From Escherichia phage vB_EcoM-pEK20: 64,000 nt of DNA. The translations under genes were made by a program, and so were the position numbers. The number at the start of each line of letters is the position of its first letter. Position 1 is the first letter of the stretch. This document shows, piece by piece, positions 33,177 through 37,231 of this stretch. The notes beneath the pieces were generated by a model. The model made no database searches. It saw nothing but the letters and a program-made list of their open reading frames with translations, and had not been told where the DNA came from. The stretch lies in sequence record MZ868638.1; one strand, 5' to 3'.

Positions 33177-34262
<1,086 letters not shown>

Positions 34263-34263
<1 letters not shown>

Positions 34264-34454
34264 TGAAACGATTATATGAAGTGATTGAGGCCATCGAACA
34301 GCATAAAGAATATTTGTTTGTAGTATGGCCTTTAGTAAATGGACGGTTCGGTATTGATGTGCTGGACTATGAACATGAAGAATGGTTGGACGGCGGTATA
34401 TTTGATAACGTCGACCAGGCAATTGAATGGTTAAATGAAAACTATGTACGATAA
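34263..34454 (+). CDS. hypothetical protein
   Basis: 63 aa ORF. Confidence 0.5.
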
Positions 34455-34659
34455 ACATCATGAAATCGAAGATGAAGCATACAAAATGCTTCGTAAACTA
34501 GTGGGACTTAATATGAGTCCTACATTAATCAACAAACTCGCAGGAATTCGTAATGATCTGAATACTCGTTACAAAGGTGAATATCATGTAGAGTTTGTTC
34601 CTGTAGGTGAACCGACCGAGCGATTTGTTGTTCGAGTTAAAGTAAATACTGTACACTGA
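34435..34659 (+). CDS. hypothetical protein
   Basis: 74 aa ORF. Confidence 0.5.
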   Translation: MKTMYDKHHEIEDEAYKMLRKLVGLNMSPTLINKLAGIRNDLNTRYKGEYHVEFVPVGEPTERFVVRVKVNTVH

Positions 34660-34944: not shown

Positions 34945-34974
34945 GTTTACAACATGGTGGAGTTGTGATACTAT
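34945..34974 (+). promoter_or_regulatory. early promoter
   Basis: GTTTAC, 18-bp spacer, TGaTACTAT; flanked by imperfect inverted repeat GGTGGAGTT/AACTCTACC. Confidence 0.6.
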
Positions 34975-35002: not shown

Positions 35003-35239
35003 ATGCTAAGTGAAAACCCAATTACAGTACACGAATTTCAGATTAAAGTAAAAGAATTTGCTCAAGCACTCATCAATAAAGTGTCTGAACGTTTCCAAGA
35101 TGCAACATTACGAGTTATTCAAGAATCTCCACGTTCTTTTCTCATAATCGTTAATCCTAAAGATGGTGACCAAATTACTAATCTTAAATTAGGCAGTGAT
35201 GGTCTTGTTGAAGCAACTCGAGTATATGGAACACTATAA
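35003..35239 (+). CDS. hypothetical protein
   Basis: 78 aa ORF, GAGGAAA RBS. Confidence 0.55.
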   Translation: MLSENPITVHEFQIKVKEFAQALINKVSERFQDATLRVIQESPRSFLIIVNPKDGDQITNLKLGSDGLVEATRVYGTL

Positions 35240-35359
35240 TGAGAGCTATCTCATTACTATCGTGAATGGTCATAAATCTGAGCACTACCAACTTAGCCTG
35301 TCTAATCCGGTTAAAGGTATTGTTGAATCAGAATCTGTTTATATCTCCTAAGGATTGTT

Positions 35360-36352
35360 ATGTTACCTGTCATCAGAAAACTTATTTCTCCAAAAGAACT
35401 GGCTGAGATTATTCCTTTGTCGGAAGCTTACGCATCACAAGTGGCTTCTCATCGCGAACAAGTTAATTCGATTATGAACGGTGAAGACCCACGCAAACTT
35501 ATTGTTGTAGGTCCTTGTTCAATTCATGACCCTATTGCTGCTGTTGAATACGGCAAACGTCTGGCTGAACTTCAAACTCGTCTTCCTAATGTTCTGTTAG
35601 TGATGCGCGTTTATTTTGAAAAGCCTCGAACTACCGTAGGTTGGAAAGGTCTTGTAAATGATCCATATCTTGACGGAAGTTTTGATATGAACCACGGTCT
35701 TATAGTTGCACGAACATTGTGTCGTAAACTTCTACGTATGGGACTTCCATTAGCAACTGAAGTATTAGACCCATTCACGATTAAGTATCTTTCTGGTATT
35801 TTCTCATGGGTTGCTATTGGCGCCCGTACGACTGAAAGTCAGACACATCGTGAAATTGCTTCAGGTCTACCTATGTGCGTAGGCTTCAAGAACGCAACCA
35901 ATGGTTCTATTAAAGTAGCTACAGACGCGATGTATAGTGCCGCCTGGCCTCATCGGTATATGGGTATGGACGTCGATGGTACTGTAGGCATTGTTGAAGC
36001 TGAAGGTAATCAGAATACGCATATCGTATTGCGTGGCGGGACTAACGGCCCGAACTATCATTCTTCTGATATTCAAGAAGCTTCTAACAAAGCAAGTGCA
36101 TTAGGTCTGAATCATTATGTAATGGTTGACTGTAGCCATGCAAACGCTGATGGGTATTATAGCAATCAAATTGGTATTGGTAAAAATTTAGCAGCTAATG
36201 ATTTGGTCAAAGGAATTATGATAGAATCATTCCTACATGAAGGAAATCAAAAAATTTCTGATAATATGTCCTATGGCGTTTCCGTTACCGATGCGTGCAT
36301 CAGTTGGGAACAAACTAAAGAGCTGTTAACTTATATTAATAAGGTTCAATAA
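35360..36352 (+). CDS. 3-deoxy-D-arabino-heptulosonate 7-phosphate (DAHP) synthase, class I (AroG/AroF/AroH-like)
   Basis: 330 aa; hallmark motifs shared with E. coli AroG/AroH (GPCSIHD, MRVYFEKPRTTVGWKGL, AIGARTTESQ, VDCSHAN, ESFLxEGNQ); AAGGA RBS; stop overlaps cd start. Confidence 0.85.
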   Translation: MLPVIRKLISPKELAEIIPLSEAYASQVASHREQVNSIMNGEDPRKLIVVGPCSIHDPIAAVEYGKRLAELQTRLPNVLLVMRVYFEKPRTTVGWKGLVNDPYLDGSFDMNHGLIVARTLCRKLLRMGLPLATEVLDPFTIKYLSGIFSWVAIGARTTESQTHREIASGLPMCVGFKNATNGSIKVATDAMYSAAWPHRYMGMDVDGTVGIVEAEGNQNTHIVLRGGTNGPNYHSSDIQEASNKASALGLNHYVMVDCSHANADGYYSNQIGIGKNLAANDLVKGIMIESFLHEGNQKISDNMSYGVSVTDACISWEQTKELLTYINKVQ

Positions 36353-36933
36353 TGAAAGCTAGCACATATCTTCAAATTGCTTATTTGATTTCTCAAGAAT
36401 CAAAATGTTGTTCATGGAAAGTTGGTGCCGTCATTGAAAAAGATGGACGCATTATCTCTACTGGATATAATGGCTCACCCGCAGGTGGCGTTAACTGTTG
36501 TGAACATGCATCCGAAAATGGTTGGTTGAAGAATAAACCAAGCCCGGTCATCGTTGCTGGACATAAAGAAGGCACTACAGCATTTGGACGGGCAGATAAT
36601 TTTGTTTTGGCTAAAGAACATCGGGCCGCTCATAGTGCATGGTCTGCTAATAATGAAATCCATGCAGAATTGAATGCAATTTTGTTTGCAGCTCGTAAAG
36701 GTAATTCTATTGAAGGTGCTACGTTATATACTACGCTTTCTCCATGTCCTGATTGCACTAAAGCTATTACGCAGTCAGGTATTAAAAAGGTTGTATACGC
36801 AGAATTATACGATCGATCTCCTGAAAATTGGGCAGACATTCTAAAACAAGCCGGTATTGAAGTAATTCAGTACTCTCGTAATAATCTTCGTTCTCTGAAT
36901 TGGGAACAAATCCGAAACTTTTGTGGTGAATAA
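36352..36933 (+). CDS. cd: dCMP deaminase
   Basis: 193 aa as T4 Cd; zinc-binding CxxC/HxE deaminase motifs. Confidence 0.92.
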   Translation: MKASTYLQIAYLISQESKCCSWKVGAVIEKDGRIISTGYNGSPAGGVNCCEHASENGWLKNKPSPVIVAGHKEGTTAFGRADNFVLAKEHRAAHSAWSANNEIHAELNAILFAARKGNSIEGATLYTTLSPCPDCTKAITQSGIKKVVYAELYDRSPENWADILKQAGIEVIQYSRNNLRSLNWEQIRNFCGE

Positions 36934-36934
36934 T

Positions 36935-37231
36935 ATGATTTTAACTGAACAAGAAACTATGGTTCTTCGTGAACGTATTAAAACTATTCTGTCTGTAGGC
37001 GTTCATTGTGTTGTATTTGAAAAGGCTAACGGCGAGGTACGCACTATGTTTGCTTCGCGCGATGAACTTGAAGTCAAATATGAAAATAACAATCCAGCAA
37101 CAGAAGTTCGTTATGAACCTCGTGAATCAGTTCGAGCATTCGATACCAAGTTAGGCCAGTGGCGTTCTTTCCGCCTTGATAAAGTAATTTCGGTTGATGG
37201 TACTCCGGCGGAACGTTTGCTTCTTATGTAA
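36935..37231 (+). CDS. hypothetical protein (31.x position)
   Basis: 98 aa from ATG at 36935; the ORF-track start at 36923 is a GTG extension. Confidence 0.5.
   Translation: MILTEQETMVLRERIKTILSVGVHCVVFEKANGEVRTMFASRDELEVKYENNNPATEVRYEPRESVRAFDTKLGQWRSFRLDKVISVDGTPAERLLLM

Follow-up and report, generated by a model that had tools for sequence, protein, structure and literature searches.

The window considered here is a stretch of 64,000 nucleotides of Escherichia phage vB_EcoM-pEK20 (sequence record MZ868638.1). Between pseT and cd, the gene of the deoxycytidine monophosphate (dCMP) deaminase, it carries a gene for a 3-deoxy-7-phosphoheptulonate (DAHP) synthase, abbreviated DAHPS below, in which the site that binds the aromatic inhibitors in the E. 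coli isozymes appears to be rebuilt. The gene and the elements needed for the comparison are the following (residue numbers in parentheses are those of E. coli AroG and come from alignment).

35360-36352, + strand: coding sequence of the DAHP synthase, class I-alpha, 330 residues, ATG start.
35350-35354, + strand: Shine-Dalgarno sequence AAGGA, as read from the sequence, with a 5-nt spacer to the ATG of the DAHPS.
35360-35389, + strand: shortened N terminus MLPVIRKLIS, with no equivalent of AroG residues 2-9, including Asp6/Asp7.
35516-35518, 36137-36139, 36224-36226 and 36290-36292, + strand: codons of the metal ligands Cys53, His260, Glu289 and Asp311, respectively, mapped by alignment.
35780-35797, + strand: codons Ile141-Lys142...Gly146 (AroG Pro150, Gln151, Asp155) of the remodeled inhibitor-site helix.
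35870-35872, + strand: codon of Pro171 (AroG Ser180).
35957-36001, + strand: β6a/β6b regulatory hairpin, retained, with Tyr200 (AroG Phe209), Gly202 (AroG Ser211) and Ala214 (AroG Thr223).
36350-36354, + strand: TAATG overlap between the DAHPS and cd (DAHPS stop at 36350-36352, cd ATG at 36352-36354).

The coordinates that the original prediction, made from the letters alone, had given to this 330-residue open reading frame (ORF) are exact, and the five motifs named there are all present: GPCSIHD (51-57), KPRTTVGWKGL (88-98), GARTTESQ (154-161), DCSHAN (257-262) and ESFLHEGNQ (289-297). The ORF runs from the first start after a stop, with no in-frame start possible further 5′, and the short N terminus is therefore real and not a choice of annotation. 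In composition (GC 0.41, and 0.29 at third codon positions, GC3) the gene matches the neighboring phage genes.

The protein scores 250.3 bits against Pfam PF00793 (cutoff 25.5), 426.4 bits against the NCBIfam aroFGH equivalog TIGR00034 (cutoff 173.2) and 453.8 bits against NCBIfam PRK12755 (cutoff 343). With the AroG-specific model NF006723 (362.5 bits, cutoff 568) and the AroH-specific model NF009396 (384.3 bits, cutoff 463), it stays under the cutoff. The closest solved relative is the Tyr-sensitive AroF of E. coli (6AGM, E = 1e-104); the identities are 51% with E. coli AroF, 48% with AroG and 45% with AroH. Fourteen metal, phosphoenolpyruvate (PEP) and erythrose 4-phosphate (E4P) residues, the catalytic set of the AroG structures, were mapped to AroG numbering by alignment, and all 14 are kept. 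The metal ligands C53, H260, E289 and D311 (C61, H268, E302 and D326 in AroG) are invariant in all homologues. Among the PEP and E4P residues, R83, K88, P89, R90, T91, G154, A155, R156, K177 and R225 (R92, K97, P98, R99, T100, G163, A164, R165, K186 and R234 in AroG) are all present. Across the phage clade described below, the 14 positions have zero entropy.

An AlphaFold2 model of the ligand-free monomer, built with a 47-sequence alignment, has a mean predicted local distance difference test (pLDDT) score of 93.4 and a predicted template modeling (pTM) score of 0.92. With Foldseek, it superimposes on E. coli AroG and on Neisseria meningitidis DAH7PS (1KFL, 1GG1, 4HSN, etc.) with template modeling scores of 0.94-0.96 and root-mean-square deviations of 1.4-1.5 Å. 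The model is a (β/α)8 barrel, with the β6a and β6b strands at 198-203 and 209-214 and with an N-terminal extension that is present and shortened. Sequence and model together confirm that the ORF encodes a DAHP synthase of class I-alpha whose catalytic apparatus is complete, and we infer that the enzyme can catalyze the reaction PEP + E4P → DAHP + inorganic phosphate. The assignment to the class I DAHP synthases made in the original prediction is thus borne out by the family models, the AroF match, the predicted fold and the catalytic residues. Two outcomes had been set beforehand as speaking against it, no similarity to DAHP synthases or a loss of catalytic residues; the values found are an E of 1e-104 and 14 of 14 residues intact. 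That the protein is inactive or moonlighting, or that it acts on another sugar phosphate in the manner of a KDO8P synthase, is very improbable, with invariant metal, PEP and E4P (KPRT) residues, a score above the TIGR00034 cutoff and a ratio of nonsynonymous to synonymous substitution (dN/dS) of 0.15-0.25. Host enzymes carried by phages are at times put to other uses, and nothing more specific speaks for such a role here.

In AroG and AroF, the inhibitor pocket comprises M147, P150, Q151, L175, L179, S180, F209 and V221 (PMC9529685). Residues Q151 and S180 of AroG bind the main chain of the inhibitor, and a salt bridge between D155 and K127 stabilizes the site (PMC9529685). The N-terminal D6 and D7 are also part of the site in AroG, and with 0.5 mM Phe, which leaves the wild type nearly inactive, enzymes substituted at D6/D7 retain >80% activity (PMC6520568). 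Complete resistance to Phe is obtained with P150L, and S180F and F209A/S are likewise feedback-resistant (PMC9529685).

The canonical pocket (Asp6/Asp7 or Asn7/Asn8, Pro150, Gln151, Ser180, Phe209) is not found in the window DAHPS. As had been noticed at first reading, the N terminus is shorter and divergent: by alignment it is 8-9 residues short of those of AroG, AroF and AroH, and the Asp6/Asp7 segment is gone. The phage copies compared at the pocket (24 full-length cluster representatives, one fragment and six genome copies) are alike, every T4-like one having K/R151, P180, Y209 and a lead of 46-50 residues before GPCSIH. Among the nearest cellular relatives, on the other hand, 94 of 95 have Q151, S/T180, F209 and a lead of at least 56 residues. 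A scan made blind to the pocket, which kept the alignment positions at least 90% fixed in both the phage and the cellular groups yet different between them, returns exactly six positions: P150I, Q151K, D155G, S180P, F209Y and T223A (AroG numbering). All six lie within three inhibitor-site elements (hypergeometric P ~2e-6, computed post hoc), and four of them are known feedback-resistance positions.

With the N-terminal segment lost and six residues replaced, the inhibitor site is rebuilt, and insensitivity to Phe, Tyr and Trp is therefore predicted. Feedback insensitivity had been suggested earlier from the N terminus; it is strengthened by the loss of Asp6/Asp7 and by the clade-wide replacement of P150, Q151, D155, S180 and F209, and it keeps the status of a prediction. 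The other way to read these changes is that the protein is an ordinary feedback-regulated isozyme of the AroF kind, in which the substitutions do no more than adjust the affinity or the specificity, for instance toward Tyr, and with which the phage adds enzyme dosage after host shut-off. The closest E. coli paralogue and the closest solved structure are indeed the Tyr-sensitive AroF, the residue at AroG position 211 is Gly as in AroF (Gly202), the regulatory hairpin and D146 are kept, and the pocket varies very little among the phage copies. We hold this to be unlikely, since neither holder of the inhibitor main chain (Q151 and S180) is kept and the Asp/Asn pair that completes the site at the N terminus is missing; in AroG and in the AroF of Corynebacterium glutamicum, one substitution at such a position is enough to abolish inhibition or to weaken it strongly.

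The 144-156 helix has an entropy of 0.18 bits in the phage clade, against 0.98 for the whole protein, which suggests that the remodeled pocket is not decaying. Conservation of this kind, with six fixed clade-specific substitutions, is unlike the simple decay of an unused site and raises a somewhat less likely alternative still, that the pocket has become an allosteric site for another effector. The shift in charge (Q to K, with the loss of D6/D7) would suggest an anionic ligand, such as chorismate or prephenate, or a nucleotide, and the gene is embedded among, and possibly translationally coupled to, genes for nucleotide precursors. The segment, however, packs against active-site loops and the dimer interface, so that its conservation may be structural, and the AlphaFold2 model is that of a ligand-free monomer.

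To place the pocket in the family, 1.84 billion representatives at 50% identity were scanned with HMMER, which returned 150 diverse I-alpha sequences. Q151 occurs in 83 of them and S180 in 96; P180 is seen in 23, K/R151 in about 8 and G155 in 3. A short lead (≤52 residues) is listed for 20, fragments and fusion proteins among them. Two sequences (P0221 and P0239) combine K/R151 with P180, and none has the full six-residue signature of the phages. A signature unique in the whole family, which was considered, is weakened by the 23 sequences with P180 and the roughly 8 with K/R151. The top matches among these representatives, P0121 (799 residues) and P0123 (730 residues), are of double length with two matched stretches each, which apparently represent a tandem or a fusion of DAHP synthase domains.

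The genes and signals around the DAHPS that enter the discussion are these.

33364-34263, + strand: pseT, polynucleotide kinase/phosphatase, which anchors the locus on its upstream side and is conserved there.
34946-34974, + strand: σ70-like TTTACA-17-TACTAT (with TG) in the gap between cd.3 and cd.2, a candidate promoter for cd.2-DAHPS-cd.
35003-35239, + strand: cd.2 homologue (DUF7320), the upstream neighbor of the DAHPS.
36352-36933, + strand: cd, dCMP deaminase (PF00383), 73% identical to T4 Cd, directly downstream of the DAHPS.

In T4, the order is pseT-cd.5-cd.4-cd.3-cd.2-cd.1-cd, without a DAHP synthase, which agrees with the earlier statement that T4 has only small cd.x ORFs there. In the window, the small ORFs between pseT and the DAHPS include homologues of cd.4, cd.3 and cd.2, and the DAHPS occupies the slot of cd.1. 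The gene lies in a co-oriented block, gp32-frd-td-nrdA-nrdB-denA-rnlA-alc-spanins-pseT-cd.4-cd.3-cd.2-DAHPS-cd-31.1-gp31-rIII. The position of the candidate promoter matches that of an annotated T4 early promoter. The translational coupling to cd stated in the original prediction holds as far as the layout goes: the TAATG overlap is compatible with it, and coupling itself is possible.

Several small ORFs of this region differ from T4. The one at 34435-34659 (+ strand, 74 residues) lies between the homologues of cd.4 and cd.3, with an overlap of 20 nt with the end of cd.4, and has no T4 counterpart at E ≤ 1e-3; its positional counterpart is RB69ORF227c. The ORF at 35196-35351 (+ strand, 51 residues) overlaps the 3′ end of cd.2 and stops 8 nt before the DAHPS start, with no family match and no T4 homologue; in phage ST0, it is annotated from 35226 (gp163, 41 residues). 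Beyond cd, the ORF at 36923-37231 (+ strand) is a homologue of gp31.1 (WYL_2/SH3 β-barrel), 43% identical to T4 31.1; its start is a GTG that overlaps cd by 11 nt in the ORF listing, while the start annotated in ST0 comes after cd. Gene 31.2 of T4 is absent between cd and 31.1 in the window phage.

The company of frd, td, nrdAB and cd bears on two further proposals, both of which we regard as improbable. According to the first, the rebuilt pocket would sense an anionic metabolite specific to infection (chorismate or prephenate, or a deoxynucleotide such as hydroxymethyl-dCTP or dTTP) and would so couple shikimate entry, or the withdrawal of E4P, to the synthesis of DNA precursors; the position in the frd-td-nrd-cd block and the stop/start overlap with cd fit such a sensor. 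According to the second, the enzyme would act as a carbon sink, its irreversible use of E4P (and PEP) pulling the transketolase and transaldolase reactions toward pentose phosphates for nucleotides. A deregulated enzyme would suit a sink, and manipulation of the pentose-phosphate pathway by phages is established in cyanophages. The proposal of a sink is, however, purely inferential. The loss of PEP is costly, DAHP would still be processed by the host from AroB onward, and the two roles are inseparable from sequence.

By megablast, the window gene is found in 145 phage records, 139 of which are full-length at ≥95% identity and mostly annotated as DAHP synthase. The top match is Escherichia phage ST0 (Mosigvirus JS09 species), with 99.9% identity in DNA and 100% in protein; the orthologue, gp164 (YP_009608453.1), lies at the same locus, and the window phage is a JS09-like Mosigvirus. 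With tblastn, the total rises to 212 phage records, including phages of Klebsiella, Enterobacter, Edwardsiella, Serratia, Erwinia and Proteus at 58%-77% identity. A 98%-identical protein (P0001), named at NCBI as from Escherichia coli, is encoded on a contig of 170,875 bp, a phage genome that was deposited as E. coli. In several phage records (KP869101, KP869104, KP869111, MG589383), the adjacent dCMP deaminase is, oddly, labeled as the riboflavin biosynthesis protein ribD.

The arrangement pseT...DAHPS...cd occurs in complete genomes of Mosigvirus, Kanagawavirus, Marfavirus, Winklervirus, Bragavirus and Kagamiyamavirus, and also on a T4-like contig of 29 kb from a metagenome. A homologue that branches more deeply (P0022) is likewise on a T4-like contig. 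The DAHPS and cd are separated by one or two small ORFs (~90-113 residues) in Winklervirus (3498-3839 in L007), Kagamiyamavirus (3483-3818 in L009) and Bragavirus (3457-4016 in L008), and the direct overlap of the DAHPS with cd is therefore not universal. The first of these ORFs overlaps the 3′ end of the DAHPS by ~20 nt in Winklervirus and Kagamiyamavirus; in all three genera they may be cd.1-like.

In a neighbor-joining tree of 115 nonredundant sequences, the phage copies form a single clade (168 of 200 bootstraps, 84%), outside enterobacterial AroF, AroG/AroH and every other cellular group sampled. The nearest cellular proteins are only 50%-55% identical to the window DAHPS and come from unrelated phyla. 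Against the five other genera, dN/dS of the DAHPS is 0.15-0.25, with saturated dS. The gene is absent from T4 and, within Mosigvirus, from RB69, where cd.2 adjoins cd (NC_004928, 133742-134502); within the genus, the gene was either lost cleanly by RB69 or never acquired by it. In RB69, cd is annotated with only 170 residues, versus 193 in the window phage and T4. Full-length records with the cd allele of the window number about 150, versus 139 with the DAHPS. These data point to a single acquisition long ago, after which the gene was passed on vertically under purifying selection and occasionally lost, the DAHPS being an accessory gene of T4-like phages of Enterobacterales. A recent capture from the E. 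coli host is ruled out by the 51% identity with AroF, the monophyly of the phage clade and the phage-like GC3 of 0.29; the description as host-like in the original prediction holds at the level of the family and not for the origin of the gene. A link to the arabinosyl-hydroxymethylcytosine DNA modification of Mosigvirus is also ruled out, as RB69 has the modification without a DAHPS; in the RB69 paper, the module proposed for UDP-arabinose is located between DNA polymerase and uvsX, and a DAHPS is nowhere mentioned.

The existence of the gene, its identity and its reading as an auxiliary metabolic gene are already known, from annotation-level records and from a 2025 paper on Klebsiella phages in which the DAHP synthetase of Kanagawavirus KLB31 is listed among amino-acid-related auxiliary metabolic genes (PMC11845039). 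Support of aromatic amino-acid synthesis is hypothesized there for the KLB31 gene in one paragraph (PMC11845039). The reading as an auxiliary metabolic gene, also made in the original prediction, fits an accessory gene flanked by phage genes and is not new, given the 139 near-identical records and that paper. Apparently unreported in the searchable literature are the remodeling of the regulatory site, the single-clade origin and the conserved synteny.

We favor the reading in which the window DAHPS is active and released from feedback control, and on the sequence evidence consider it probable, with some reserve. The enzyme would be made early, alongside the nucleotide-precursor genes, possibly with translational coupling to cd, and its DAHP synthase activity would escape inhibition by Phe, Tyr or Trp. 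The flow of DAHP into the remaining shikimate enzymes of the host would thereby be sustained during infection, in a setting where host gene expression is shut off and rising amino-acid pools would otherwise throttle AroG, AroF and AroH. The product that counts may be aromatic amino acids that go into phage proteins, or folate, made from chorismate, that serves the reactions of td, frd and gp42; alternatively, the payoff could lie in a withdrawal of E4P that would pull the non-oxidative pentose-phosphate pathway toward nucleotide precursors.

A number of points weigh against release from feedback and its benefit to the phage. The substituting residues (I, K, P, Y) differ from those of the engineered mutants, except that changes of the Ile/Leu type have been tested at nearby positions. 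The β6a/β6b hairpin, D146 and the AroF-like Gly at 211 are all retained, and the conservation of the pocket (0.18 vs. 0.98) could just as well reflect a functional site whose specificity has changed. In the family at large, the pocket appears naturally plastic, the phage signature being distinctive relative to its nearest relatives and not unprecedented in kind, and regulation is not readable from sequence with certainty. No other shikimate enzyme is encoded by the phage in the region examined, and any effect therefore depends on the AroB-AroC capacity of the host. The scan for promoters and terminators gives 14 promoter-like sites versus 15.2 expected, which is not above chance, and leaves the promoter assignment without statistical support. 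T4 and RB69 do without the gene, and any benefit is thus conditional. In the searchable literature, no experimental, enzymological or genetic work on any phage DAHPS was found.

Like E. coli AroF (6AGM/6AGL), AroG (1KFL) and AroH, the window DAHPS is a I-alpha (β/α)8 barrel with the same Cys-His-Glu-Asp site, the PEP and E4P residues and the β6a/β6b hairpin. Unlike them, it has a 5-residue deletion near AroG 282-287, a shorter C terminus and no equivalent of Asp6/Asp7 or Asn7/Asn8, and it is encoded by a phage, with a phage codon composition. The positions altered are those of the engineered feedback-resistant forms of AroG (P150L, S180F, F209A/S, D6G-D7A) and of the AroF of C. glutamicum (Q159A, P155L/I). 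In contrast to the engineered mutants, the phage changes are natural, combined (six substitutions with an N-terminal deletion), fixed in the clade and to other residues (Ile, Lys, Gly, Pro, Tyr). The orthologues in ST0 (gp164) and Kanagawavirus KLB31 are the same gene, and the prior treatment there is at the level of annotation only.

Cyanophages carry auxiliary metabolic genes of central carbon metabolism (talC, zwf, gnd, CP12). As in those, a host-type metabolic enzyme is found in a lytic myovirus and presumably redirects host flux; the differences are the entry to the shikimate pathway, the Enterobacterales hosts and the predicted loss of allosteric control. Type I-beta DAHP synthases (e.g., of Pyrococcus furiosus) are naturally unregulated and lack regulatory extensions altogether, whereas the phage DAHPS keeps the I-alpha scaffold and has the residues of the pocket changed instead.

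The presence of the gene is by itself of little weight, with more than 130 near-identical annotated genomes and the listing as an auxiliary metabolic gene already made. What carries weight is that, in a whole old phage lineage, the only fixed differences from cellular relatives sit where metabolic engineers mutate for feedback resistance. If the favored reading is true, this would be a clear coliphage example of a virus that overrides an allosteric checkpoint of its host by means of a deregulated isozyme. It would also give a testable handle on the need of T4-like enteric phages for shikimate flux (aromatic amino acids, folate and other chorismate products, or E4P drainage), and it would offer, for the production of aromatic compounds, a set of I-alpha DAHP synthases that are stable and feedback-resistant by natural evolution.

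A convergent loss of the pocket in independent phage lineages was considered as further support and is unusable, as the other records labeled phage look bacterial or are unverifiable. The DAHPS of “Acinetobacter phage MD-2021a” (CAKLQH020000056.1) is near cobS, a histidine phosphatase and a ribazole phosphatase, and the contig looks bacterial; two fecal scaffolds of “Bacteriophage sp.” with a DAHPS (L017 and L018) are unannotated and unverified. The only credible second phage lineage is that of Aeromonas phage HJ05 (OQ594355, 2399-3562), a 79-kb phage that is not T4-like. Its DAHPS, annotated as a hypothetical protein, is divergent (38% identity, 387 residues), with a His/Lys-rich N-terminal extension of ~27 residues and an acidic C-terminal tail, and its pocket is likewise noncanonical (A150, H151, P180, V209 and A211).

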